From Candidatus Saccharimonadales bacterium (GTDB lineage: Bacteria; Patescibacteriota; Saccharimonadia; Saccharimonadales; EFPC-124), in the NCBI GenBank assembly GCA_035457345.1, contig DATIBT010000033.1, forward strand, positions 2,390-66,389: DNA of 64,000 bases, read 5' to 3'. This document shows positions 20,621-59,734 of this stretch, piece by piece; position 1 is the stretch's first letter, and each line of letters starts with the position of its first letter. The notes below the pieces were generated by a model. That model had not been told where the DNA came from. It did no database searches and was given only the letters and a program-made list of their open reading frames with translations. The position numbers and the translations under genes are program-made.

Positions 20621-22558
20621 TCACGCAGCCGCCGGGGCGGCGAAGAGCGCTTGCAGCCCTTCTGCATCGAGCGATTCGACTTCGAGCAGCTTGGTGCGCA
20701 GCAGCTCAAGTTTTTCGCGATGCCCGGTAAGTAGGGTGATCGCTGTCTGTTCAGCCTCCTTTACGAGCTTGTCAATCTCGGCAGTGACGTCGGCCAGGCG
20801 CGGGTCATGGCCTGAAGTTCCGAGTGGCACTTGGGCAGTGTACTTCTCGCCCATGCCCACTTTCGTCACCATGTAGGTGGCGAGTTGGGTTGCGACTTCG
20901 AGGTCAGACTCGGGGCCTGTGGTGAAGTCGTCGCCAAAGATCACCCGCTCGGCGGCCCGTCCGCCCATGTAGTAGGCGAGCCGGGCTTTGAGCTGTTTGA
21001 CTGTTAGGTACAGCCAGTCGCCGGTGTCCATGCGGGTATGGCCGCCGGATCCGCCTCTGGGCACAATGGTTACCCGGTGGGGCGGGTCGCCATGCTCTAG
21101 CAGCATCGCTACCAGTGCGTGGCCGCTTTCGTGGTATGCCGTGTAGTTGCGGTCACGCTCGGCTACTTCCCGGTTGCGTGCCAGGCCCACTTCGATGATC
21201 TCCAGGGCATCCCTGAAGTCCTTCATGGTGACACTTGGCGCGTCCCGCTTGATAGCAAGCAGACCTGCCTGGTTGCATAGAGCAGCCAGCTTTGCGCCGG
21301 TCATGCCGCTGGTGAGTCGCGCCAGCTCGGCATACGACACGTCGTCGTCCACTTGGGCGAGCTTAGCGGCATGGAGCCGCAGGATCAGCTCGCGTGCCTT
21401 AGGATCGGGTGCAGGCATGCTGGCATGCCGTGTGAAGCGACCCGGACGCATGATGCCAGGGTCGAGATCGTCAGGCCGGTTAGTCGCACCGAGCACTAGG
21501 ATTGTCGCGTCCGTGTCCTCTGTGAAACCGTCCATCTGCGCCAGCAGCTCGTTGAGCGTGTTGTTGAGCTCCTTGCTGCCGGAGTCGTCGTTGCTACTCC
21601 GCTTGCTGGCGATTGAGTCAATCTCGTCGATGAACAGAATACCCCGTCCGTGACGGCGAATTTGTGCGAACGCCTCCTTGACGGCGCGCGGGCCGTCGTT
21701 CAGCCAGCGGCCCATGAAGTCGGAACCCTTCATAGAGAAGAACGGCACACCGGCTTCACCAGCAATAGCTCGTGCCAACAGCGTCTTGCCCGTACCGGGA
21801 TCTCCCAGAAGGAGAATGCCGGTGAGGGGCTTGACCCCGCGCGCTTTGTACTTCTCGGGGTACTTGAGTGCGTCGACGCTTTGGGCGATTTCGGCAATGA
21901 CCTCGTCGGCACCGCCAACATCCTTGAAGCGCACGTTGGGTATGGCGGCGGGCGCTACCACCACGCCAGATGACTTCAGGCTATTTCCTATGCTCATACT
22001 CCTTAATGTGGTGCGATTGAGCCATATCAGGAGTAGGAGGAACAGGAATAGGAATAGGAATCCAAAGAACCACTGGTATTTTTCGGCAAAGCCCTTGCCT
22101 GCCACGGTCAGTGGGACACGTGGATTGGCCTTTTCGGCCGCCTCGACAAGATTCGGGCCGTAGCCTGTGGGGTAGGCCACCAGATAACCCTCACCATCCT
22201 TTAGCGTGACGGTCATCTGGTTGTGGTCGTTTTGGAGCTCTAGCTCCTGCACCTTCTGCTGCTTCAGGTCGGCATAGAACTGGCTGATCGGTTTGGTGTC
22301 TGGCTTGTGCTTCTCCGGCGAGGCAAGTAATGGCCACATGAGGAAGAAGACCATCAACGCCAACACTGGCCATACCGGTTTCAAGTGCACTGCGACCGGC
22401 TTGGCCTTCTCGCGCCACCAGCGCTTAAACTGTAGAACGTTCACCACTCTCCTAGTTTTTCTAGGTTTTGCGGACTTGTTGATTTTAAAATGAACTCGTA
22501 CATTAGTAAATGGCGCATTCCAGTAGTGTTTGACGTATGCCAAAAATACAGCGTACAA
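20621..22558 (-). CDS. ftsH: ATP-dependent zinc metalloprotease FtsH
   Basis: Two TM helices; AAA Walker A GDPGTGKTLLARAIAGEAGVPFF; SRH TNRPDDLDPGIMRPGRF; zinc site HESGHALV. The N-terminal extension before TM1 is unusual, so the true start may be internal. Confidence 0.93.
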   Translation of the reverse strand: MYAVFLAYVKHYWNAPFTNVRVHFKINKSAKPRKTRRVVNVLQFKRWWREKAKPVAVHLKPVWPVLALMVFFLMWPLLASPEKHKPDTKPISQFYADLKQQKVQELELQNDHNQMTVTLKDGEGYLVAYPTGYGPNLVEAAEKANPRVPLTVAGKGFAEKYQWFFGFLFLFLFLLLLIWLNRTTLRSMSIGNSLKSSGVVVAPAAIPNVRFKDVGGADEVIAEIAQSVDALKYPEKYKARGVKPLTGILLLGDPGTGKTLLARAIAGEAGVPFFSMKGSDFMGRWLNDGPRAVKEAFAQIRRHGRGILFIDEIDSIASKRSSNDDSGSKELNNTLNELLAQMDGFTEDTDATILVLGATNRPDDLDPGIMRPGRFTRHASMPAPDPKARELILRLHAAKLAQVDDDVSYAELARLTSGMTGAKLAALCNQAGLLAIKRDAPSVTMKDFRDALEIIEVGLARNREVAERDRNYTAYHESGHALVAMLLEHGDPPHRVTIVPRGGSGGHTRMDTGDWLYLTVKQLKARLAYYMGGRAAERVIFGDDFTTGPESDLEVATQLATYMVTKVGMGEKYTAQVPLGTSGHDPRLADVTAEIDKLVKEAEQTAITLLTGHREKLELLRTKLLEVESLDAEGLQALFAAPAAA

Positions 22559-44076: not shown

Positions 44077-46704
44077 ATGTGCGGTATCGCTGGTTATTTC
44101 GGGTACTCCGATGACAAACAACTCCTAAAAACAATGAACGCTGCCCAGGCGCACCGTGGGCCCGACGGCCCCGGCTACTTTACCGACGGTCCGGTTGGTT
44201 TTGCGCATCTGCGTTTGGCCATTATTGACCGCGCGCATGGCATGCAGCCAATCACCGATGCCAGTGGCAATTACACGGTCATCTACAACGGCGAAATTTA
44301 TAACTACCTCTCACTCAAAAAAGAGCTAGAAGACGCGGGCCGTACATTTAAGACCGAATCCGATACAGAAGTTATCGTGGAGGGCTTTGCGGCGTGGGGC
44401 GCCGATATATTCGACAAGCTCAACGGTATGTTCGCCGTTGCTATCTGGGACAAGAGCAAAAGCCAGCTTATCTTGGCGCGCGATCACTTTGGCATAAAGC
44501 CGCTTTATATAGCCCGCGATGGCAAGAACCTGTTGTTTGCCTCAGAAATTAAAGCGTTGCTGGCAACTAAAAAGATTGAAACGTCACCCAATGACCGTCT
44601 TATTTACCGCTATTTGCGGTTCCGCATTCATGAAGATTCGGCCGAAACATTCTTTACCGGTATAGAAAAACTCATGCCAGGCGAAATGATGGTGGTTGAT
44701 AAAAATGGTGCGACACGTTCGCAATTTACCACGTTTGTCGATGATCTTGCCAAACAAGGCAATAAAACACAGCCCTACACGCAATCTATCACCGACGAAT
44801 ACGCCAAACGGTTGACCGAATCTGTCCGCATGCGCCTCATGAGTGAAGTGCCAGTTGGCACCTGCCTATCCGGCGGCTTAGACTCGTCGGCTATCATGCT
44901 GACCATCAACAAATTATTGAACGAGAAAGATGCTGCCACTCAATCTGTCGGCGCGCTACAAAACACCTTTAGCGCCGTTTTCCCTGGTTCAATTAATGAC
45001 GAAGAAAAATACATAGACGCCGTGCTCGCACAAGCCAAAGGCAAGGTAGCGGAGCACAAGATTTACCCCACGGCGGACACTTTTGCCACTGACCTAGAAG
45101 ATTTTATCCGCACCCAAGAAGAGCCGACTATTAGCACCGGCCCCTACGCCCAGTATAAAGTTATGGAAGAGGCCGCCAAGCACGTCACGGTGCTGCTCGA
45201 CGGCCAAGGGGCAGACGAAATGCTCGCCGGTTACTACCCCTACTATTTCGTATATTTGCGTCAGCTGAAGCGCCAAGGCCGCTACCTTAAAATGATGGGT
45301 GAAATGCTGCGTTCTACCGATGTCCTTTTCCGTTTCCTGCGGTTCCGCCTGTACGACAAGCTGAACTTCCGCAAAAGAGTCGGCATAAGTGAATTGCTCA
45401 ACAGCACATTCAAGCAAACTCACTCCGCTGAGACGTTTGCGCCCGTGCCCGACGACCTAAAGAAACGTTTTATAGAAGACTTGTTTCATAATAGCCTGCC
45501 GGCGCTCCTTAGGTACGAAGACAAAAATACCATGCGCTTTAGCTTGGAGGGCCGCGTCCCATTCCTCGACAAAGAAACGGTGACATTTTTGTTTGGCCTG
45601 AGCGACGAAGCTATTATTCGTGGTAGTTGGAACAAGCGTATTTTGCGTGACGCCACAAAGGGGTTGCTGCCGGAAGCGGTACGCGCACGCCGCAATAAAA
45701 TCGGCTTTACAACTCCTGAAGTTGAATGGTTCAAGCGCCTTAAGACCCGTTTTTACGGTATCTTCCTGAGTGAGAGTTTTGCTAACCGCCCTTACTTCAA
45801 CCAGCAAGCGGTACTAAGCGCGTTTGAAGGTCATATTAAGGGCCGTAACACCACTGATACTATGATTTTTTGGCGTATGCTCAATGTTGAGCTGTGGCTG
45901 CGTGAATTCTTCGACGAAAAAGCACCGGAGCAACCGGTACACGAAAAAACCGACCTCGAACCTAACAAAGAAAAGCAGCTCGATCTTGTGGCAAACGGCA
46001 AAACCTACCGCCGCTATCCTCTGCGCACCAAAATGGTTGCCGCTACAGACGAGCTGGCTCCATTTGTCGCGGACCGCCTGAAGGATTTCTTCCAGACATT
46101 ACAGGCTTCTGACCACAAAGCCTACATGCAAAAGGACTGGCGTTTGTTTATTAGCGAAAAAGTAGTCGCGATTACCCAGGGCCGTTCCTACTTTATCTGG
46201 GATATTAAGCCTGGCTTTTGGGCGCGTACCCTCAGTAAATTTGTGGTTAAAACGCCATATGGGATTGGCCTGGGCAGCCCATGGACCATGCAGCTTGCCA
46301 TAGAAGAAGCCGGCTTGACGCGCATTTTATTTGCCTCCGTGGGGGGTGCGGTAGGCAAGGTGCTCGGCAAGAAAGGGGTGTTTTATGAGCTTGCCGGCGC
46401 GAATGTCCGCGCCATTGACGGCCCGACCGAATACTCGGTGTACCCCAGCAATGTTTCGGCTAAATTGCCACCGAAAGACCCAACCAAAGTGGCCGCTCAG
46501 CTCGATGCTGCTATTCGCGACGTCCTCCCTGCTGAAGCTGTCGAGCACTTCAAGGGCGTTGTAGTAATTGACGCTAATGACCTGGGCCGTAATGTTCTTG
46601 GCCATAATACCGACCACCATCCAGCGGACCTAGAGGCTGTGTTTGCCGATAACCCCCTTGGGCAGGGGAGCGAACAAACGCCGTTATGCGTGGTGTTCGA
46701 GTAA
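44077..46704 (+). CDS. Asparagine synthetase (glutamine-hydrolysing, AsnB-like) fused to a C-terminal CofE-like (F420-0:gamma-glutamyl ligase family) domain
   Basis: N-terminal Ntn-hydrolase MCGIAGYFGY (Cys2 nucleophile) and the AsnB synthetase PP-loop TCLSGGLDSSAI. C-terminal roughly 230 aa show CofE-family motifs: ISEKVVAITQGR (cf. SKAEGR), NVRAIDGP, GVVVIDANDLGRNVLGHNTD (cf. ITDTNGR). Confidence 0.75.
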   Translation: MCGIAGYFGYSDDKQLLKTMNAAQAHRGPDGPGYFTDGPVGFAHLRLAIIDRAHGMQPITDASGNYTVIYNGEIYNYLSLKKELEDAGRTFKTESDTEVIVEGFAAWGADIFDKLNGMFAVAIWDKSKSQLILARDHFGIKPLYIARDGKNLLFASEIKALLATKKIETSPNDRLIYRYLRFRIHEDSAETFFTGIEKLMPGEMMVVDKNGATRSQFTTFVDDLAKQGNKTQPYTQSITDEYAKRLTESVRMRLMSEVPVGTCLSGGLDSSAIMLTINKLLNEKDAATQSVGALQNTFSAVFPGSINDEEKYIDAVLAQAKGKVAEHKIYPTADTFATDLEDFIRTQEEPTISTGPYAQYKVMEEAAKHVTVLLDGQGADEMLAGYYPYYFVYLRQLKRQGRYLKMMGEMLRSTDVLFRFLRFRLYDKLNFRKRVGISELLNSTFKQTHSAETFAPVPDDLKKRFIEDLFHNSLPALLRYEDKNTMRFSLEGRVPFLDKETVTFLFGLSDEAIIRGSWNKRILRDATKGLLPEAVRARRNKIGFTTPEVEWFKRLKTRFYGIFLSESFANRPYFNQQAVLSAFEGHIKGRNTTDTMIFWRMLNVELWLREFFDEKAPEQPVHEKTDLEPNKEKQLDLVANGKTYRRYPLRTKMVAATDELAPFVADRLKDFFQTLQASDHKAYMQKDWRLFISEKVVAITQGRSYFIWDIKPGFWARTLSKFVVKTPYGIGLGSPWTMQLAIEEAGLTRILFASVGGAVGKVLGKKGVFYELAGANVRAIDGPTEYSVYPSNVSAKLPPKDPTKVAAQLDAAIRDVLPAEAVEHFKGVVVIDANDLGRNVLGHNTDHHPADLEAVFADNPLGQGSEQTPLCVVFE

Positions 46705-50436: not shown

Positions 50437-51237
50437 CTAGTTCCCTTGGGGTGCTAGCTCACGCCTTCGCTTGCTTGCACGGTCGGCCGCGACGCCATAC
50501 GCAACCATCAGTAGGATGGTGATGGTGATTCCTAGGCTGACCATCCACGCGCCGAGTGTTCCGCGGGCACGGAATCCTTCCCGCAGTAGGAATACGGCGA
50601 TGAAGTACTCCCACACCTGGACCTTCATGGTGAGGCGCATCAACAGGACGCTAAATCGGAAATCAAAATCCGAGTAGGCCGCCCAGTACTGTTCTGTCCG
50701 ATCTTCTAGTACGGCCACCAGCTGGCGCCGGTCACGCCGGCACCACCAGGGGATGGCGTCGGTAACACGCAGGATGATGATTGCGTCGAGTACGCCGCTT
50801 ACTCCTCCGGAGAATGCCCACCGGACACACCACCAGCGCCACCATAGCGGATTGGCATACCGTGCGAAATCTTCGCGGCCCGCCGGTGTACTTTGGGTGG
50901 CGGTGACGTAGCGCCAGCAGAAGTTGCGGGCGTACTTGATGACAGTCTGGTGCCGCAGGGCACTATCCCATATGACGCCGGTCGCCAGCAGGGTGATACC
51001 GATTGGCCACGCCAGCTTCCAGCCGTCGAAGGCCGGATGCCAGACGGGGTAGGTGGACCAGACGCATGTCATGAGCACCAATAACCAGAAGGCAGTTTGC
51101 ACCGACCGCCGGTCATCTCGGAACTTCGCCGACCATCGGTCGACCACGTACGGCGCCCGGCCGATACCGAGCACTGAGCCTGCGAAGCGCATTGCGCCTG
51201 CAAAACCCATCAGCTGTTCTCCTTGTTCTATTGGCAA
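50437..51237 (-). CDS. Hypothetical Trp/Arg-rich polytopic membrane protein on a GC-elevated segment
   Basis: 266 aa, several TM helices, about 58% GC versus about 49% for the surroundings; no family recognised. Confidence 0.3.
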   Translation of the reverse strand: MPIEQGEQLMGFAGAMRFAGSVLGIGRAPYVVDRWSAKFRDDRRSVQTAFWLLVLMTCVWSTYPVWHPAFDGWKLAWPIGITLLATGVIWDSALRHQTVIKYARNFCWRYVTATQSTPAGREDFARYANPLWWRWWCVRWAFSGGVSGVLDAIIILRVTDAIPWWCRRDRRQLVAVLEDRTEQYWAAYSDFDFRFSVLLMRLTMKVQVWEYFIAVFLLREGFRARGTLGAWMVSLGITITILLMVAYGVAADRASKRRRELAPQGN

Positions 51238-51318: not shown

Positions 51319-51393
51319 GCGGGTGTGGTATAACGGTTATTATTCCAGTTTTCCAAACTGGCGACGAGAGTTCGACTCTCTCCACCCGCACCA
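51319..51393 (+). tRNA. tRNA-Gly (anticodon TCC)
   Basis: Acceptor GCGGGTG/CACCCGC, anticodon stem CCAGT/ACTGG with loop TTTCCAA, T arm GAGAG-TTCGACT-CTCTC, discriminator A, CCA encoded. Confidence 0.8.
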
Positions 51394-51395
51394 AG

Positions 51396-51426
51396 AAAAA
51401 TAGCCTACTTCATGTAGGCTATTTTT
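51396..51426. terminator. Perfect 13-bp hairpin (aaaaatagcctac-ttca-tgtaggctattttt) between the convergent tRNA-Gly and tRNA-His; bidirectional terminator
   Basis: Inverted repeat with flanking A/T runs read in the sequence. Confidence 0.55.
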
Positions 51427-51428
51427 CT

Positions 51429-51506
51429 TGGGGCGAATGATGGGGTTCGAACCCACGGCCTCCGGAGCCACAATCCAGCGCTCTAACCAGCTGAGCTACA
51501 TCCGCC
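51429..51506 (-). tRNA. tRNA-His (anticodon GTG) with encoded G-1 and C73
   Basis: Reverse-complement reads G(-1)-GCGGATG-TA-GCTC-AGCTGGTTA-GAGC-...loop TTGTGGC...-T arm-CATTCGC-C-CCA. An extra 5' G opposite discriminator C73 is the tRNA-His identity element. Confidence 0.85.
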
Positions 51507-51625
51507 AAGTAACGGAGCCTATTATATCAGTTTGTTTGCATGTTTAACAGATGGGATTTAGTGTTTTCTTGGAATACGACCAGGGGAGAGGTGCTTGGGG
51601 CCGGCGCTGGTCCGGCCCACTCGCG

Positions 51626-52168
51626 TCATGCTTTGAGGTAGGCAATGCCGGCCTTGCGCAGTGCATCTTCGATTCCTTCGACCATGTCCGGGGTCATGTC
51701 CGGAATCTCGCGCAGCTCTGCTGGCGTCCAGCGGCGCAGGAACTCTACCGAGGTGATACAAGTTGCTATGAGGACGTTCCATATTGGGTCACTTAGTTCC
51801 AGTTTGTCTTTCAGGTCTTCCCTGAGCAGTTCCTCCGGCGTGACGTCTGCGAACCTGAGACCCAACTGCTTCATGAGGCTGAGGATCACGAGCATGGAGT
51901 TGTGGTTCTGACCGATCATCACCCAGAAGTGACGGAACGCCATGTCTCTGGCCCGGTCCAGCGTGTACCACCACTCGGGCCTGAGCGGGTTCAAGCAATC
52001 GCTCAGCGGCACGTAGTCGCCGATGCGGATTTGATCCGCCGGCAGCGGCTCACCTTTCTGGCCGAGTGGCGTAAATTGCAACCCATGCACGGCTGCAGTC
52101 GCAGCAATTTGGTGTACTGCGCCCTCGCCGAGAGGCTCGCCGGTGATGGTAAGGTGAAATACGGGCAT
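51626..52168 (-). CDS. Hypothetical protein with C-terminal RNA polymerase alpha-subunit CTD-like helix-hairpin-helix domain (paralog 1)
   Basis: The C-terminus LELSDPIWNVLIATCITSVEFLRRWTPAELREIPDMTPDMVEGIEDALRKAGI matches the alphaCTD pattern. Start at ATG 52168 preceded by GGAGG-N6; the annotated ORF begins at an upstream TTG. Confidence 0.5.
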   Translation of the reverse strand: MPVFHLTITGEPLGEGAVHQIAATAAVHGLQFTPLGQKGEPLPADQIRIGDYVPLSDCLNPLRPEWWYTLDRARDMAFRHFWVMIGQNHNSMLVILSLMKQLGLRFADVTPEELLREDLKDKLELSDPIWNVLIATCITSVEFLRRWTPAELREIPDMTPDMVEGIEDALRKAGIAYLKA

Positions 52169-52195
52169 GGTGCCCCTCCAATCCTGGTCGAGCAA

Positions 52196-52224
52196 ACTAT
52201 ATCATTAATAAGCAATTCTAACAA
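52196..52224 (-). promoter_or_regulatory. Sigma70-like promoter of alphaCTD-like paralog 1 (TTGTTA-17 nt-TATAGT)
   Basis: Hexamers with 17-nt spacer read on the minus strand; a near-identical promoter precedes paralog 2. Confidence 0.45.
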
Positions 52225-52380
52225 ATTTAGCAGGTGGCTTGTCCTGGGCGGCCACGATGATTATACCTTCGCCCGTTTGAGGAGCGGCTTTGTCGCACAG
52301 ACAAACTTTATTATTGTTTCCGGGGTAATTGACCAGGGTGGAGCATTCGCGCTGGCGGGGCCTGCAGCCCCGCCGGCACG

Positions 52381-52938
52381 TCACTCGCCTGCGAGCTTGA
52401 GTCCGAGCAGGGCCAGCTTACGTCGGATCTCGCCAATGCCTTTGTCGCCGAGGTTGCGGAAATCGTTCAGGTCGCCTTTGGTCCAGAAGCTCAAGAAGTA
52501 CATCGATTTGATTTTTTCGCGGTCGAGTACGTTAAATACTCGTACGCTGAAGTTCATGTCGTTGATGTCGTTCGTTAGTAGCCGTTCAGGGTCGGCGTCG
52601 GCGAATGACGCATCGTTGTCGCGCATCAGCCTGATGATCTGGAAGGCGGCCTCGAGGCAGGCGTCATTGCGGTGTAATAGGGTGGTGTTCCAGAACTGCC
52701 TGAAGGTGACGGCTTCCAGGTCTGCCACCGTGATCATGTTGCCTTGCTTGAGCCGGCTGGCTATGCCGTCTGGCAACACGACATGCTCGGCAATGACGAC
52801 CGTAGCTCCTTGCGAGATGTAGTCCTGCCCCTCCACTACCTCCACTTGGAAACCGACTTGACGCGCGAGTGAAATGACTCGCCGCGACGGCGCGCCCGCT
52901 AGTTCTGCACCGCCCGAAATCGTGATAACAATTTCCAC
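52381..52938 (-). CDS. Hypothetical protein with C-terminal RNA polymerase alphaCTD-like domain (paralog 2)
   Basis: The C-terminus FSVRVFNVLDREKIKSMYFLSFWTKGDLNDFRNLGDKGIGEIRRKLALLGL closely follows the alphaCTD consensus (L.VR..N.L....I..i.dL......eL....N.G.KSL.EI...L...GL). Probable GTG start at 52938 after GGAGG-N6. Confidence 0.5.
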   Translation of the reverse strand: MEIVITISGGAELAGAPSRRVISLARQVGFQVEVVEGQDYISQGATVVIAEHVVLPDGIASRLKQGNMITVADLEAVTFRQFWNTTLLHRNDACLEAAFQIIRLMRDNDASFADADPERLLTNDINDMNFSVRVFNVLDREKIKSMYFLSFWTKGDLNDFRNLGDKGIGEIRRKLALLGLKLAGE

Positions 52939-52965
52939 TAGGATCCTCCATCCTGGTCGTGGCAA

Positions 52966-52994
52966 ACTATATCATCGCAAAGAAATAATTACAA
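52966..52994 (-). promoter_or_regulatory. Sigma70-like promoter of alphaCTD-like paralog 2 (TTGTAA-17 nt-TATAGT)
   Basis: Duplicated about 30-nt promoter/5'UTR block shared with paralog 1 (…atgatatagtttgcNcgaccaggatNggagg…). Confidence 0.45.
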
Positions 52995-52997
52995 TCA

Positions 52998-53073
52998 TGG
53001 CGCCCCGGGTAAGATTCGAACTTACGGCCAGAAGCTTAGAAGTCTCCTGCTCTATCCACTGAGCTACCGGGGC
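52998..53073 (-). tRNA. tRNA-Arg (probable anticodon TCT)
   Basis: Reverse-complement reads acceptor GCCCCGG/CCGGGGC (7 perfect bp), T8 A9, D arm GCTC-AGTGGATA-GAGC, anticodon loop CTTCTAA (one mismatch closing the stem), T arm GTAAG-TTCGAAT-CTTAC, discriminator G, CCA. Confidence 0.75.
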
Positions 53074-53772: not shown

Positions 53773-54627
53773 TTAATGACGGCGCCTTATCCACTGGTTG
53801 CCGCCGCTGATGGGCTTGGCTGTTGCGAACCGGACGGGCGGCCGCAATTGCAAGGTGCGCTTTCCGATGAACCTATCCAATAGTGACTCAACCTCTTTGA
53901 GCACGGGAATGGATGCTTCACGCGTGTTCAATAGTCGGTCAATGATCGATCCGCTGAGCACCACCTCTCGCTCTGGATGTGTCAGAATCAGAGGCACGAG
54001 CGCCCATTGCACGAAGTTGCGCAGATGAAAGTGTTGCCATTGCTCTTGCCGAATGTTGCCGAAATCGCCATTCGCGAAGTCCCGCAGCCCAGCTGCGCCG
54101 ACCAACAGGTCTACGCAGCACCCTACGCCGCACGGGCAGTTCAATCCATTCCCGGCGTAAGGTGCTGGGAAGTGACCGATGGGCACTCGTGTAGCAGCCA
54201 GACTGTCGCTTGCGGTAGTTGCCGCCGTGATGCCGGCATCCCACGATACGCAGGTGAGAGCCTTTGGGGAGCTAGTGCCAGACAGTTCTCCCGCTAGTAC
54301 GGCTTCTGCTGCCTCGCAGACGCTCACCGGAATGTCACCGAGTGCTTCCTTCAGGTTCATCTCCACCGTCGGGCCAGCCCAATTTGCGTACAAGACACCC
54401 ATACTGAGCACTCGCCTCATAGGAGTGAGCGCCGCGGGGAGCACAAGCACCGCCTCTTCCGGCGGTACGCTTCCCCACGCCGCCTGGGCCGCCCGGGCAG
54501 TGTTTTCGAGCCAGGTCCAGTAATCACGGTTTGTGGGAAATGTGCGGTCGCCAGCAAGCCCGCCGGGAGATGGAATGCCAAGCCGTGTGTTGCTCACGTC
54601 AACGGCAATGACAAGTCGTCTTGTCAT
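53773..54627 (-). CDS. ROK-family protein (sugar kinase/regulator-like) on a GC-elevated segment
   Basis: N-terminal LVIAVDVSNTRLGI (actin-fold phosphate-1) and a Cys-rich zinc motif CPCGVGCC resembling the ROK CxCGxxGC signature; about 60% GC. Confidence 0.55.
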   Translation of the reverse strand: MTRRLVIAVDVSNTRLGIPSPGGLAGDRTFPTNRDYWTWLENTARAAQAAWGSVPPEEAVLVLPAALTPMRRVLSMGVLYANWAGPTVEMNLKEALGDIPVSVCEAAEAVLAGELSGTSSPKALTCVSWDAGITAATTASDSLAATRVPIGHFPAPYAGNGLNCPCGVGCCVDLLVGAAGLRDFANGDFGNIRQEQWQHFHLRNFVQWALVPLILTHPEREVVLSGSIIDRLLNTREASIPVLKEVESLLDRFIGKRTLQLRPPVRFATAKPISGGNQWIRRRH

Positions 54628-54675: not shown

Positions 54676-56205
54676 TTATAATTCGCGCAGCACTTCTATG
54701 TGGGCGCCAATTGAGTTGAGCCGCGCGGCCAGGTCCTCGTAGCCACGGTTAATAGAGTAGACATTACGCAGTACCGAAACGCCATCGGCGGCAAGCATGC
54801 CGATCAAAATAAGCACAGCAGGCCGCAAGGCAGGCGGACAAATGACTTCGGCGGCTCGCCAGTGCGTCGGCCCGTTAACGTAGGCACGGTGCACGTCGGC
54901 AAGCGTAATTTCAGCATTGAGTTTGTTTAGTTCCGTGTAATAGATGGCGCGGTTTTCGTATGTCCAGTCATGAATAAGCATTTTACCCCGTGCGTTTGCG
55001 GCAATTGGCACAAAGTAAGGCAGGTTGTCCATGTTCATACCTGGATCGTCGTGGGCTTCAAGCTTGTCTTCAAGCGCAATCAGGTGCGATGCGTCGAGGC
55101 ACTGGATATCCACGAGTGCCGTGTGACCGTTTTTGGCTTTGTACTCGTCGCTAACTTTAAACTTGAAGTTCATCTTTTCGAGCTTAAGCAGCTCAAGGTC
55201 GAGGTAGTCAATCGGTACACGGCGAATAGTGATAGGTGAGTTAGTGGTGGCCGCGATGCTTAAGAAGGTCATGGCTTCGATTGGGTCTTCGCTGGGCCAA
55301 TATTCAACATCTTCATTTATAGTCTTTTTGCCGTGGATGCGGAGGGTGTGCGTGCCAATGCCTTCTACCTTGACCCCAAGCTTGGTTAAGAAGTGACAGA
55401 CGTCGACAACCATATAGTTACTGGCAGCGCGGCGGATTTCAACGACACCGTTGATACGGGCTGCGGCCATAATAGCGTTTTCGGTTGGGGTGTTACCACT
55501 TTCGTACATCACAACTTTGCCTGGGTTGCGTGGCTTGCTTGTACAGTTGTACCAGCCGGTCGTGGTAGTAACTTTGAGGCCCATTTCTTCAAGGGCAAAC
55601 AGGTGAGGGCGGATGGTGCGCTCGCCCAACTTGCAGCCACCAGCGAACGGAATTTTAAATTCAGGAAGCAAGTGCATGAGCGGACCCATGTACATAAGGA
55701 CACTGCGGGTTTTGCGGCCCGCTTCGACGTCGATATTTTTCATCTGCAGCTTGGCCGGCGGCTTGATCTCCAGGTCGCCAAGGTCATTCAGCCAGCGCAC
55801 TTTTACGCCAATGCTGATGAGTACCTCGATAAGGCGGTTGACCTCTTCAATCTTTGGCATCCGGCGTAGGGTTGTTGTGCCCTTGTTGAGTAACGAGGCG
55901 CACAAAAGACCAACGGCGGCGTTTTTGCTTGTACGCACAGTAATCTCACCTTTGAGCTTATGGCCGCCTTCGATACGGAAGTTCAGCGTGCCAGGACGGT
56001 TAAGCGATACAATCTCGCTGTTAAGCGCGTCGCTAATACGGGCCAACATTTCCATGCTCAGGTTCTGGCCTCCGTTCTCGATGCGGTTTACCGCGCTTTG
56101 GCTCGTCTTAAGCGCCTTAGCGAATTCGGCCTGGGTAAGGCCGCGGTCGAGTCGGGTTTGTTGAATTAACTTACCAATCTTTTGCTTGTAGTGCAGATCT
56201 GTCAT
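54676..56205 (-). CDS. murA: UDP-N-acetylglucosamine 1-carboxyvinyltransferase (MurA) with N-terminal XRE-type helix-turn-helix domain
   Basis: First roughly 70 aa IGKLIQQTRLDRGLTQAEFAKALKTSQSAVNRIENGGQNLSMEMLARISDAL = Cro/C1-type HTH. The remainder has MurA/EPT motifs (GEITVRTSKNAAVGLLCASLL; catalytic-Cys loop AGGCKLGERTIRPH). Confidence 0.85.
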   Translation of the reverse strand: MTDLHYKQKIGKLIQQTRLDRGLTQAEFAKALKTSQSAVNRIENGGQNLSMEMLARISDALNSEIVSLNRPGTLNFRIEGGHKLKGEITVRTSKNAAVGLLCASLLNKGTTTLRRMPKIEEVNRLIEVLISIGVKVRWLNDLGDLEIKPPAKLQMKNIDVEAGRKTRSVLMYMGPLMHLLPEFKIPFAGGCKLGERTIRPHLFALEEMGLKVTTTTGWYNCTSKPRNPGKVVMYESGNTPTENAIMAAARINGVVEIRRAASNYMVVDVCHFLTKLGVKVEGIGTHTLRIHGKKTINEDVEYWPSEDPIEAMTFLSIAATTNSPITIRRVPIDYLDLELLKLEKMNFKFKVSDEYKAKNGHTALVDIQCLDASHLIALEDKLEAHDDPGMNMDNLPYFVPIAANARGKMLIHDWTYENRAIYYTELNKLNAEITLADVHRAYVNGPTHWRAAEVICPPALRPAVLILIGMLAADGVSVLRNVYSINRGYEDLAARLNSIGAHIEVLREL

Positions 56206-57936: not shown

Positions 57937-58030
57937 AAGCGGGGCCCGCGATCTCTTATTGTGTTCGAGACCGCGGGCCGAGCCCTACGACTGGGCGGAT
58001 GGGCCACTTGTTTGGCGCCGCCCGGTAGCG

Positions 58031-58630
58031 TCAGCCACCCGAGTTGCTTCGACCGGCGCCGATGAGGACGTTTTCACCCGTGACGGACGAGGCGTCTGGC
58101 GCGGGCGGTTCGGCCGTCAGCGCCTTGGCACTGGTGATGCCGCGTGCGGCCTCGACACTGGAGCGCAGGACGTACCGGAACGCGAGGTGTCGGCCGATAC
58201 CGAAGCGTGGCTTCACGTACCTGAGCAGTGTGTCGGCCAGCTCGGGCTCACCCATGAAGATGAGCGCCAGTCGCTCTGGCGTGGCATATAGCTGCACGTG
58301 ACCACGGTCCGACGGACTCCATGAGCCCGGCGTTTGGGTGAGGACGTTGGTCAGGCGGCTGACGAGCGCACCCTCGTCTTGGCCGATGGCAGCCTTGATC
58401 GCGCGGTTGTCGGTGCCGCCGTACGTGATCTTCATGCCCATGCCGCGGGCGGTCAGGAGCAGGTCACGCACGACAGCCTGCATGCTGGTGACTTCGCTTC
58501 GCAGGTGCATCACCAGAGGTTCCTGGCTAGACCGGCGGATCTTGCTGATCGCGTTCCCCGCAGCCCACACCGGCAGGGTGGAGGCAAGCAGGATGGCGAC
58601 CGGATTGTAAAGCAGATCTTGCGGGGACAT
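58031..58630 (-). CDS. Hypothetical protein on a high-GC (about 62%) segment
   Basis: ORF with GC3-rich codon usage; start placed at the internal Met (MSPQDLL...) where GC-rich sequence begins; the annotated ORF extends to 58747. Confidence 0.35.
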   Translation of the reverse strand: MSPQDLLYNPVAILLASTLPVWAAGNAISKIRRSSQEPLVMHLRSEVTSMQAVVRDLLLTARGMGMKITYGGTDNRAIKAAIGQDEGALVSRLTNVLTQTPGSWSPSDRGHVQLYATPERLALIFMGEPELADTLLRYVKPRFGIGRHLAFRYVLRSSVEAARGITSAKALTAEPPAPDASSVTGENVLIGAGRSNSGG

Positions 58631-58851
58631 AGCAGCCTTTCGGCCATAGCTCGCGAGGGGCCAACTATTGGCATCGCACGCCACCAATGGCTTCAGTAGC
58701 GATCGTAGAGCTTTTGTTGTTATAGTCTTTTTTAGTTTTAGTGTCAAGATAAAACGCGAGAGAGTTAGGAATGCCCGCGGCTAGGCCGCGGGCTTCCCTA
58801 CGCTGTTGCACATGCACTGTTAGCGTGGCCCCGGGGTGGTGGGCCACGGTG

Positions 58852-59484
58852 TTACTCGGAACGAGGGGGGCCGGTGTCGGGGCTGTTTGCCCTATTGTTG
58901 TTACCGATGGTTGGCTGTTCACCAGTGCTTCCGGTGTGATTTGCCAGTGCCTCCTGAAAGAACCCGAGGCCTTGGGTGTTCTCCACGAGGGTTGCCAGAG
59001 GGCCTTCTGGCGGTACTGCCACCTCTTCGGTAGGCGGTACTGGCGGTGCCGAGATGGGAACAGAGAGGAGAACATCTCCGTCCGAAGTGACTGGGGTGGC
59101 CGTACGCGGCTCTCTCGTAGGAACGGGGTTCGGCCTGGCGAACCGTTCGCGGCCCGTCACGGCTTCGGGGTCCGGGGTGGTCGGCGACGGTGCAACCGGC
59201 ATGGGAAGCTGGTCACCCGAGGGGCTGATCCCGCTTTCCAGCAGGCGCGTTCTGCTGAGATCCCTCCCCAGATGAGGGAACTGGCTGTAGACGAACTCAA
59301 GCGCGGTTCGTACAGCAACTGCCACGTCCTCTCTGCGCCGTTCCGCTGCGGCCGCCAGATCTTCGTCGCGTTGGAGCAAGAGATCCTTATATGTGTCCTC
59401 CGCGGCTTTTCGTAACTTCTCGTGGTCGGCCCGGACGGTGTGGTACCCGGCCATCGCTCCTTCGATCTGGTTGGCTAGGGTCAC
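58852..59484 (-). CDS. Hypothetical Pro-rich protein on the high-GC segment (probably longer, with an N-terminal TM helix encoded upstream of the first ATG)
   Basis: Pro/Thr-rich linker PMPVAPSPTTPDPEAVTG. In-frame upstream sequence encodes a TM-like helix (WLTLIGIAILIVTSLV), suggesting a GTG/TTG start near 59600. Confidence 0.35.
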   Translation of the reverse strand: MTLANQIEGAMAGYHTVRADHEKLRKAAEDTYKDLLLQRDEDLAAAAERRREDVAVAVRTALEFVYSQFPHLGRDLSRTRLLESGISPSGDQLPMPVAPSPTTPDPEAVTGRERFARPNPVPTREPRTATPVTSDGDVLLSVPISAPPVPPTEEVAVPPEGPLATLVENTQGLGFFQEALANHTGSTGEQPTIGNNNRANSPDTGPPRSE

Positions 59485-59734
59485 AATGTCTTCGTCGATC
59501 TCACGTACTCGCCGCCCCGTCTCCCAGGCAATGACTGCCCGGACGAGGCTTGTGACGATCAGGATGGCAATGCCAATCAGCGTGAGCCATTGGAAGGTAG
59601 AAAAGGTAGAGATGACGGACTCCTCTTCCTTGTAGTGTGCATGCTCTAAACGGCTAAGCCGTCCGCGCTTCTGAGCGCCTTGCGTAGAGCGACCGTATTT
59701 TATACTTATTAGATGTGATGGTCAAGCCTTTGGG

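Follow-up and report, generated by a model that had tools for sequence, protein, structure and literature searches.

Two co-oriented minus-strand ORFs, here termed A and B, are flanked by genes for tRNA-His and tRNA-Arg(TCT) in the window (the whole 64,000-nucleotide stretch of DNA that was analyzed) and encode paralogous proteins whose C-termini are homologs of the C-terminal domain of the RNA polymerase alpha subunit (alphaCTD). The explanation that we favor, with moderate confidence in it as a whole, is that A and B represent a rare family of ~180-aa cytoplasmic proteins, specific to their lineage and inherited vertically, that is found in one MAG and in related metagenome contigs. They would act as alphaCTD-type DNA-binding or adaptor proteins, and their mRNAs may be closed by pairing between their 5' and 3' ends. 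In textbooks, the alphaCTD is the module that lets the polymerase read UP elements and receive signals from activators. Databases also contain annotated copies of it outside RpoA, and we found no studies of them in the searchable literature. The features of the locus are as follows:

51319..51393, plus strand: tRNA-Gly(TCC), a conserved neighbor in the relatives L001, L003, L004, L006 and L007
51429..51505, minus strand: tRNA-His(GTG), directly 3' of gene A and co-oriented with it
about 51521-51526: -10 element of the tRNA-His promoter; that promoter has TGATATAAT
51577..51591, minus strand: 3' arm of gene A, minus-strand sequence CCTCTCCCCTGGTCG, predicted to pair with the A leader
51598..51618, minus strand: G+C-rich hairpin directly 3' of the A stop codon (GGGCCGG / CCGGCCC), lacking a U-tract and present in the MFE fold
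51626..52168, minus strand: gene A, 180 aa, ATG start, a degenerate paralog
about 51641-51844, minus strand: divergent alphaCTD-like domain of A (residues ~109-176)
52175..52190, minus strand: 5' arm and leader of A, CGACCAGGATTGGAGG, beginning at the predicted +1 and containing the Shine-Dalgarno sequence GGAGG
52196..52224, minus strand: promoter of A, TTGTTA-17-TATAGT, with a TG extended -10
about 52305-52329: remnant similar to the promoter region that relatives have at tRNA-His, 3' of the B 3' arm on the minus strand
52330..52346, minus strand: 3' arm of gene B, minus-strand sequence CTCCACCCTGGTCA
52354..52374, minus strand: G+C-rich hairpin 3' of the B stop codon, GGCGGGGC / GCCCCGCC, lacking a U-tract
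52381..52938, minus strand: gene B, 185 aa, GTG start
52411-52587: B residues 118-176, canonical alphaCTD (PF03118 match)
52609-52776: B residues ~55-110, candidate degenerate alphaCTD-like domain
52789-52938: B residues 1-50, small N-terminal module
52945..52959, minus strand: 5' arm and leader of B, CGACCAGGATGGAGG
52966..52994, minus strand: promoter of B, TTGTAA-17-TATAGT, with a TG extended -10, beginning 4 nt past tRNA-Arg
52998..53073, minus strand: tRNA-Arg(TCT), upstream of B and co-oriented with it; the same tRNA lies ahead of the family gene in L009 and forms a boundary of the locus in L001 and L002

The initial annotation of this DNA, made from its sequence, had described a paralogous pair between tRNA-His and tRNA-Arg with tRNA-Gly nearby, and that arrangement is real, as evidenced by the tRNA calls and by the alignment of A with B over 160 aa (26% identity, E = 2e-11). 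Both proteins are identical to deposited proteins of a Candidatus Saccharimonadales MAG, and the NCBI record for B already bears the title 'alpha C-terminal domain-containing protein'. No Rfam families other than the tRNAs were found at the locus.

Our analyses also bore out the alphaCTD-like C-termini that had been proposed for both proteins, which are alphaCTD homologs, B by its Pfam match and predicted fold and A by a subfamily profile only. B matched PF03118 (RNA_pol_A_CTD) at residues 118-176 with E = 1e-12 and 48 bits against a cutoff of 23.8, and the C-terminus of its AF2 model (pLDDT 90.1) superimposed on the E. coli alphaCTD 1lb2_E with an rmsd of 1.8 Å and a TM-score of 0.85 over 66 residues at 35% identity. 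The gene A protein alone had no Pfam match, and a profile of A with its closest relatives, P0006 and P0007, matched the B. subtilis alphaCTD chain with E = 7.3e-8. The profile matches in PDB were exclusively to RpoA CTDs, and PF03118 was matched by 16 of 18 family members.

The N-terminal ~110 residues had been thought to match nothing recognizable, which still holds for residues ~1-50 and does not for residues ~55-110, as the latter look like a second, degenerate alphaCTD-like (HhH)2 domain. When residues 1-112 were modeled alone, residues 50-112 had a pLDDT of 90-96, and the top Foldseek matches of that model were alphaCTDs, namely 9dvt_A (probability 0.95, TM 0.64), 7vpd_S and 9zum_A, with E-values that are weak for such an assignment (0.03-0.6). 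In an hhalign comparison the middle and C-terminal regions aligned in register at a non-significant P of 0.02, and the part of the relative P0131 that best matches PF03118 lies in the equivalent first domain. Residues 1-50 were modeled at low confidence (pLDDT 64-86). A BRCT-like N-terminus, which an ITISG…SRR pattern had suggested, was rejected, as the 1-112 model has a single helix in residues 1-50 and no BRCT matches. Each protein would have three parts, a ~50-aa N-terminal module, the putative degenerate domain and the C-terminal alphaCTD homolog.

The compact (HhH)2 fold predicted for B is that of the RpoA alphaCTD (PF03118; E. coli 1LB2, B. subtilis 1Z3E); unlike RpoA, the alphaCTD of A and B is preceded by the ~50-aa module and the candidate second domain. 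The N-terminal dimerization and assembly domain of alpha (PF01193 / PF01000) had no match in either protein, and the match to the RpoA model TIGR02027 covers only the CTD (44 bits versus a cutoff of 227.8). A and B are therefore not polymerase subunits, and no rpoA gene lies within the 64-kb window.

The residues by which the alphaCTD contacts DNA separate the two paralogs. In E. coli this '265 determinant' comprises R265, N268, C269, G296, K298 and S299. Four of the six are retained in B, whose R133, N136, G164 and K166 are the equivalents of R265, N268, G296 and K298, whereas A has kept the N268 equivalent only (one of six) and has lost those of R265, G296 and K298. Among the 18 family members, R265 is kept in 11 and N268 and G296 in 15 each. 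The D259 equivalent is present in B, and the activator-contacting '287 determinant' of RpoA is not conserved in the family. Both proteins are acidic (pI 5.1-5.3), for which reason general DNA coating is not favored, and the alphaCTD part of A has a net charge of -6. By analogy with the alphaCTD at UP elements, B-type proteins would probably contact the DNA minor groove and backbone and may serve as small transcription or nucleoid modulators. A-type proteins, their DNA contacts lost, would probably act by binding other proteins; they might, for instance, partner B or compete for the ligands of the alphaCTD.

A different view, raised in the initial annotation, is that the proteins are decoys which mimic the alphaCTD. 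They would then sequester the partners of that domain (activators, sigma region 4, Spx-like factors) or vie with it for UP elements, and would have no DNA targets of their own. Genuine homology and a matching predicted fold would be expected of a mimic, and proteins without the alpha N-terminal domain could not assemble into polymerase. The D259 equivalent of B and the rapid evolution of the proteins beside nearly invariant leaders are also in keeping with such a role. The decoy reading fits A, with its lost residues and acidic alphaCTD that would suit a protein-binding mimic, but is a poor fit for B, in which the DNA-contact residues are retained, as they are in most members of the family. 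In addition, the 287 determinant is not conserved, no partner gene recurs beside the family from one locus to the next, and no alphaCTD-dependent activators are known in this lineage. We regard the decoys as unlikely.

The family of A and B is rare. An exhaustive HMM search of 1.84 billion representative proteins gave 194 matches at E <= 1e-3, approximately 20 of which are ~140-200-aa proteins that aligned across most of their length, and in all we recognize ~20 clusters of ~180-aa proteins, all of them metagenomic, with relatives of A and B present in JGI samples 3300078405-3300078458. When A, B and the family alignment were used as queries in word-index homolog searches, almost nothing but the queries was recovered, searches of genome and metagenome contigs with the leader DNA pattern and a protein alignment gave no matches, and the motifs searched were absent from 185,579 species-representative genomes. 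Hallmarks of the family are the motif F-x-D-x-x-P, which is invariant where the domains join, and LxLKGE at the C-terminus. Its members are only 20-40% identical among relatives, whereas their leaders are nearly invariant.

Stand-alone alphaCTDs exist elsewhere, in small phage proteins of BFVD and in a 95-aa hypothetical protein (NCBIfam NF005841), and metagenomic proteins with 2-11 tandem alphaCTD repeats or with TPR plus alphaCTD resemble A and B in having the domain outside RpoA and often in tandem. The A/B family differs from the stand-alone proteins in its own architecture, with the F-x-D-x-x-P and LxLKGE motifs, and in its conserved chromosomal position, leader and 3' element, and it has no sequence-level match to phage records. 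The initial annotation knew of no description of this architecture, and the searchable literature contained no description of stand-alone alphaCTD proteins like A and B or of their function.

The duplicated promoters and near-identical leader blocks reported for the two genes were recovered as a direct repeat (52192-52224 / 52962-52994) with a spacing of 770 nt. Both genes have a promoter of the form TTGT(T/A)A-17-TGnTATAGT and a GGAGG-N6-start, and they share the leader CGACCAGGAT(T)GGAGG; for a 24-nt leader pattern the chance expectation in the 64-kb window is 0.00 occurrences. Transcription starts were inferred from the spacing to the -10, which places the +1 of the A leader 6-7 nt past that element, and 3' ends are likewise predicted. 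The TGATATA(A/G)T within the shared block is the usual strong -10 of this organism and is also present at the tRNA-Gly and tRNA-His promoters. The pair probably originated when an entire transcription unit (promoter, leader, coding sequence, hairpin and 3' element) was duplicated in tandem within the slot between tRNA-Arg and tRNA-His, so that A and B would be separate units, each under an extended -10 promoter. Tandem paralog pairs were also found in L010 and L011.

That slot is conserved. The tRNA-Arg / tRNA-His / tRNA-Gly arrangement recurs with relatives of A and B, which places homologs beside tRNA genes elsewhere too, and it holds a family gene in all the syntenic relatives seen; in P0004, P0006 and P0012 the tRNA-His lies directly 3' of the family gene. 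The neighbors of A and B are housekeeping genes, and those that recur are an HTH-EPSP synthase fusion, SHMT, a membrane protein, a ClpC-like ATPase and a P-type ATPase. The suggestion that the pair is a small mobile module therefore did not stand, since the same slot and neighbors are found in relatives and since no integrase or transposase was found near A and B, no att-like direct repeats at the locus, and no matches in phage, plasmid and PADLOC (defense-system) searches; PHROGs gave a single weak match (0.003) of undescribed function. A horizontally acquired or mobile cassette placed beside tRNA genes would account for the tRNA genes on both sides, the very patchy distribution, the tandem copies, the inter-tRNA gene content that differs among relatives and the inverted repeats flanking each gene. 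It would also be in line with base composition. The elevated GC that had been noted (~57%) is real though modest, at 58.2% in A and 56.6% in B versus 52.3 +/- 3.6% for 48 ORFs of the window, with a GC3 of 0.72 versus 0.565 +/- 0.06 (98th percentile of window ORFs). Nevertheless, the slot and flanking genes recur although the proteins are so diverged, and the promoters follow the organism's own -10 consensus, in common with its tRNA promoters. We consider a mobile origin highly improbable.

Beyond the coding regions, seven loci, the GACCAGG group, have a conserved element located 35-58 nt 3' of the stop codon to which the leader is complementary from the predicted +1. For the six closest loci (A, B, P0004, P0006, P0007 and P0012) we searched up to 3 kb on both flanks of the gene, or less where contigs were shorter, and the best sense-strand complement of the 5' arm ends at +45 to +58 after the stop codon. 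The arms of A form 13 bp (-20.3 kcal/mol), those of B were found independently by a repeat finder (16 nt, 88% complementary, the 3' arm to 52943-52958), and duplexes across the loci have 10-14 bp and energies of -17 to -27 kcal/mol. When the full transcripts of the six closest loci were folded computationally, each MFE structure contained the helix, at P ~1. The leader of B is one U shorter than at the other loci and its 3' arm is one A shorter, a matched deletion of one base in both arms. The core of the 3' arm is the sole invariant island in otherwise unconserved 3' regions; in the A/B group this arm lies beyond the post-stop hairpin, a possible transcription terminator.

More distant members have complementary arms as well. 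P0040, whose protein is 20-27% identical, has TATAGT-N6-GACCAGGATT at its start and AAATCCTGGTC past its hairpin, with the Shine-Dalgarno sequence outside the helix. A distant group of three loci has another pair, ACAGACG / CGUCUGU, with the 3' arm directly after the stop codon and ahead of the terminator hairpin. Whatever its sequence, a complementary arm starts at the predicted +1 in 10 of the 10 loci that have one; P0042, P0035 and P0079 had no evident complementarity.

Formal covariation support for this pairing is weak. Of 15 pairs, only one changes both of its bases (A-U in two loci and G-C in another), with a covariation score not above that of shuffles, and duplex energies relative to shuffled 3' regions reached only z = -1 to -3, for which reasons we infer, rather than assert, pairing in the RNA. 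Similar 5'-3' pairing was predicted for 3 of 40 control genes of the window.

Potentially, the complementarity works in DNA instead, the arms being inverted protein-binding sites that flank each gene. Such sites could be operators through which the encoded HhH protein, or a different factor, exerts autoregulation, or they could serve recombination or be terminal inverted repeats. Conservation of the arms mainly through invariance would be expected of such sites, the most common mismatch (A opposite C, in four of seven loci) is no better tolerated on sense RNA than in DNA, and the antisense strand of the arms pairs equally well or better. The 5' arm occupies +1 to +16, where repressors classically bind. 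In L001 and L012 the tRNA-His promoter has its -35 region overlapped by the 3' arm, and the encoded proteins are plausible DNA binders. Operators would not, however, account readily for the start of the arm at the predicted +1, for the G-U pairs that P0007 has on the sense strand, or for the position of the distant group's 3' arm inside the transcript. No recombinase or transposase lies nearby, and the G+C-rich arm is unlike the A/T-rich DNA bound by the alphaCTD. A role of the arms at the DNA level is possible but doubtful in our estimation.

If the arms instead pair in RNA, as we favor, the predicted mRNA start GACCAGG... would anneal to the 3' element …CCUGGUC, and a helix of 10-14 bp would join both ends and close the mRNA. 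Transcripts would then be expected to start at the G/A of CGACCAGG and to extend past the CCUGGUC arm. In most loci such a helix would mask both the 5' end and the Shine-Dalgarno sequence, and may thereby control stability, translation or both.

The candidate-phyla-radiation lineage has very few recognizable transcription factors. A more far-reaching proposal, which we put forward as speculation with little expectation that it is correct, is that the proteins are free-standing alphaCTD surrogates that act in trans, an unrecognized class of global transcription modulators in the reduced genomes of Saccharimonadales. B-type proteins would occupy UP-like elements of stable-RNA promoters, such as those of the tRNA genes beside which the family is found, A-type proteins would tune them, and their synthesis would be gated by the 5'-3'-closed mRNA. 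The locus offers a compact and well-defined family for asking what a free alphaCTD does, in the form of two tandem alphaCTD-like domains and often of a 'competent plus degenerate' gene pair, and the complementarity of transcript start and 3' element can be put to the test as a possible case of 5'-3' UTR control. Should neither function hold, there would still be a clean family and domain annotation for proteins labeled hypothetical.

To our knowledge, only a handful of cases of 5'-3' UTR control are established in bacteria, and fold-back of the 5' and 3' ends is a feature of hok-type type I toxin mRNAs. Precedents for pairing of 5'-UTR and 3'-UTR are the icaR mRNA of S. aureus (PMC3868564) and the hbs mRNA of B. 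subtilis (PMC5737220). Whereas icaR, hbs and hok are regulated by UTR pairing, that of the A/B family is deduced from complementarity with weak covariation, and the product is a 180-aa alphaCTD-like protein rather than a biofilm repressor, HU or a toxin. As in the icaR and hbs type, the 3' element is C-rich and complementary to the leader, including the Shine-Dalgarno sequence in most A/B-family loci, the helix would take in the extreme 5' end, and the arm of A has UCCCCUG in common with icaR.

Our analyses of genes A and B, two neighbouring paralogs on the minus strand, point to an uncharacterised tandem-alphaCTD architecture (alphaCTD being the C-terminal domain of the RNA polymerase alpha subunit, RpoA) that is confined to a rare, lineage-specific family and is accompanied by a candidate 5'-3' UTR control element. 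The pair lies between tRNA-His and tRNA-Arg, in the same orientation as both, with tRNA-Gly nearby, an arrangement read by the initial annotation from the sequence alone and recovered here by ARAGORN, Rfam and the deposited proteins:

51319-51393, plus strand: tRNA-Gly(TCC) (ARAGORN and Rfam)
51429-51505, minus strand: tRNA-His(GTG) (ARAGORN and Rfam)
51577-51591, minus strand: 3' arm of A (complementary element past the stop codon), CCTCTCCCCTGGTCG
51626-52168, minus strand: gene A, 180 aa
52224..52196, minus strand: promoter of A, TTGTTA-17-TATAGT, sigma-70-type with TG extended -10
52330-52343, minus strand: 3' arm of B, CTCCACCCTGGTCA
52381-52938, minus strand: gene B, 185 aa, GTG start
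52994..52966, minus strand: promoter of B, TTGTAA-17-TATAGT, sigma-70-type with TG extended -10
52998-53073, minus strand: tRNA-Arg(TCT) (ARAGORN and Rfam)

Both proteins are 100% the same as those in the database record of a Candidatus Saccharimonadales MAG (66.7-kb contig), in which A is annotated as 'hypothetical' and B as 'RNA polymerase subunit alpha C-terminal domain-containing protein', and their suspected paralogy was evident in an identity of 26% (E = 2e-11). The promoters are independent and duplicated, as had been proposed, forming a direct repeat with a spacing of 770 nt (repeat finder, D2), and GGAGG-N6-start stands in front of both genes. TGATATA(A/G)T is the organism's general strong -10, common to the tRNA-Gly and tRNA-His promoters (repeats I5 and I8), and the leader CGACCAGGAT(T)GGAGG is specific to A and B. 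A further TATAAT occurs at ~52259-52266, ~70 nt upstream of A's -10. The elevated GC that had been noted is real but modest (58.2% in A and 56.6% in B versus 52.3 +/- 3.6% for window ORFs), and GC3 of both genes is 0.72, in the 98th percentile (window ORFs 0.565 +/- 0.06), which may be related to expression-linked codon bias, mRNA-structure selection or foreign origin.

The alphaCTD-like C-termini were confirmed by profile comparison and, for B, by modelling. Residues 118-176 of B match PF03118 (RNA_pol_A_CTD, E = 1e-12), and B also matches the CTD portion of all RpoA NCBIfam models; A alone had no Pfam match, and a profile of A with its two nearest relatives matches the B. subtilis alphaCTD (7.3e-8). 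RpoA CTDs were the only PDB entries matched with significant E-values by a joint A and B profile. B was modelled with AlphaFold2 from a family alignment of 18 sequences (mean pLDDT 90.1), and the predicted C-terminal domain can be superposed on E. coli alphaCTD 1lb2_E with an rmsd of 1.8 Å and a TM of 0.85. The N-terminal ~110 residues had been described as matching nothing recognisable, which stands for the first ~50 residues, whose fold was not recognised, but probably not for the middle part. When residues 1-112 were modelled separately, with the canonical alphaCTD left out, residues 50-112 (pLDDT 90-96) repeated the alphaCTD helix pattern, and the best Foldseek matches were the alphaCTDs 9dvt_A (prob 0.95, TM 0.64), 7vpd_S and 9zum_A, with weak E-values of 0.03-0.6, ahead of other (HhH)2 folds. 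The middle region also aligned with the C-terminal domain in the expected register by hhalign, at only P = 0.02, and the best alphaCTD stretch found by Pfam in a shorter relative, P0131, is its first (middle) domain. Based on these matches, we read the proteins as a ~50-aa N-terminal module (low confidence), a degenerate alphaCTD-like domain and a canonical alphaCTD. The N-terminal module is missing from the shorter relatives P0093, P0109 and P0131. A BRCT fold for the N-terminus found no support. As judged by Pfam and NCBIfam, neither protein has an alpha-NTD, and hence A and B are not polymerase subunits; rpoA is not within the 64-kb window.

Alignment of the family to the E. coli alphaCTD, using a reference sequence whose numbering is self-consistent at R265, N268, G296 and K298, mapped the DNA-contact residues. 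All four equivalents are retained in B, whereas A retains only N268 (with P, T and D at positions 265, 296 and 298, respectively) and has a net charge of -6 in its alphaCTD part; overall, both proteins are acidic (pI 5.1-5.3). Across the family, R265 is retained in 11/18 members and N268 and G296 each in 15/18. The same asymmetry at position 265 exists in the tandem pair P0016 (M) and P0021 (R), and is absent from a third tandem pair. We infer that B-type proteins would bind DNA as alphaCTD does, that A-type proteins would be degenerate partners or competitors, and that the N-terminal module would mediate oligomerisation. A and B may instead be alphaCTD decoys, as suggested initially, although B keeps the DNA-contact residues and the family does not conserve the activator-contact 287 determinant.

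The A/B family is rare. Word-indexed searches with A and B recovered essentially the queries alone, and searches of 185,579 species-representative genomes and of a metagenome contig collection, with the patterns usable in them, yielded no member. When 1.84 billion representative proteins were searched exhaustively with an HMM, 194 matched at E <= 1e-3, and ~20 of these are proteins of ~140-200 aa aligned over most of their length. In this group the domain junction carries an invariant F-x-D-x-x-P, and LxLKGE is usually present at the C-terminus; the other matches have the alphaCTD alone in common. The ORFs are intact in relatives, rather than broken or frameshifted. Small phage proteins in BFVD that are annotated as alphaCTD-containing match the family by fold only. 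The HMM matches also included non-RpoA proteins with 2-11 tandem alphaCTD repeats, which are numerous in public metagenomes (P0005, P0008, P0009, P0011, P0013, P0015 and P0002) and for which the searchable literature yielded no description; examples are P0005 (1031 aa, 11 repeats), P0002 (TPR and two alphaCTDs) and P0009 (an RNA_pol_L fragment followed by three alphaCTDs).

The chromosomal context of the family is conserved. P0004, which has 40% identity to B, is flanked by tRNA-Arg(TCT) and tRNA-His/tRNA-Gly, with an HTH-EPSP-synthase fusion, SHMT and a membrane protein near it, as in the window; tRNA-His directly follows P0006 and P0012, and tRNA-Arg precedes P0007. P0122 and P0042 have a ClpC-like ATPase on one side and a P-type ATPase on the other, and each of these ATPases is also encoded close to the window locus or to its relatives. 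No integrase or att repeats were found at the locus, and phage, plasmid and defence-system searches gave no matches. From this we conclude that the locus is a chromosomal slot inherited vertically, and not the mobile module that was one initial suggestion. Tandem paralogs also occur elsewhere (P0016 with P0021; a partial paralog with P0050). Downstream of B's 3' arm, CCCTGGTCAATTACCCCGGAAACAATAATAA (52286-52330, minus strand) shares homology with the promoter region of tRNA-His located directly after the single-copy ortholog in the metagenome loci L001 and L012. This resemblance points either to a tandem duplication of a whole unit or to insertion of A downstream of B, ahead of tRNA-His; CCCTGGTCAATTACCCCGGAAACAATAATAA looks like a relic, with gene A and its promoter now separating B from tRNA-His.

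The leader is near-invariant in A, B, P0004, P0006 and P0007 despite their proteins being only 23-40% identical (P0012 has the variant CGACCAAGGGTTGGAGG). It starts 5-6 nt past the -10, at the predicted +1, and is complementary to a conserved element 35-58 nt past the stop codon, just beyond a G+C-rich hairpin without a U-tract. B's arms were found independently by the repeat finder (I3; 16 nt, 88% complementary) and carry a matched single-base deletion. At six loci the stretch that best complements the 5' arm on the sense strand, sought up to 3 kb either side of the gene (less on shorter contigs), ends +45 to +58 after the stop, and CCTGG, the core of the 3' arm, is the sole invariant segment of 3' regions that otherwise cannot be aligned. 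P0040, whose protein is only 20-27% identical, has TATAGT-N6-GACCAGGATT at its start and AAATCCTGGTC past the hairpin. Because its SD is 20 nt further downstream, the conserved partner of the 3' arm appears to be the mRNA 5' end, not the SD as such. A more distant group starts with ACAGACG (GGCACAG at one locus) and has CGUCUGU (or CUGUGUC) right after the stop codon, ahead of the terminator hairpin. Three family loci had no obvious leader/3' complementarity.

By analogy with icaR (PMC3868564) and hbs (PMC5737220), bacterial mRNAs regulated by 5'-UTR/3'-UTR pairing, our preferred reading is that A/B mRNAs would be closed at the RNA level, the paired ends protecting the 5' end and masking the SD. 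The arm duplexes are of 10-14 bp (-17 to -27 kcal/mol), and folds of whole transcripts (~600 nt, with predicted ends) placed the helix in the MFE with a probability of ~1 at 6/6 loci. A serious rival is an inverted operator pair acting at the DNA level. The antisense strand pairs as well as the sense strand, the duplex energies have z values of just -1 to -3 when compared with shuffled 3' regions, and covariation is minimal, with one pair changed on both sides and a score no better than shuffles. Similar end pairing was predicted in 3/40 control genes. The family represents a clean entry point to unexplored free-alphaCTD biology in a CPR lineage, and the functions proposed for it are putative.

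Other features of the window were also identified. A 44-nt imperfect inverted repeat (51365-51457) spans the convergent 3' ends of tRNA-Gly (plus) and tRNA-His (minus), and its centre (~51394-51428), an A/T-flanked hairpin, looks like a shared bidirectional terminator. The conserved ORFs flanking the A/B locus (50437-51237 and 53773-54627, both minus) match no Pfam or NCBIfam family; one encodes a 266-aa multi-pass membrane-like protein, whose 257-aa counterpart adjoins tRNA-Gly in L001, and the other a 284-aa protein with only faint ROK-kinase resemblance. Local GC spikes (0.61-0.62 versus 0.52) occur at 21001-22000 and 58001-59500, the latter with long overlapping ORFs on both strands (58031-59484). 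An 875-aa asparagine synthase (44077-46704, plus; GATase_7 and Asn_synthase) has a C-terminal extension scoring 24.3 bits against F420-0:gamma-glutamyl ligase, just under the Pfam cutoff of 25. At 54676-56205 (minus), a 509-aa protein joins an N-terminal Cro/C1-type HTH (PF01381) to an EPSP-synthase/MurA-type domain (PF00275), a fusion kept in the syntenic relatives L001 (638-2167) and L002 (852-2381).
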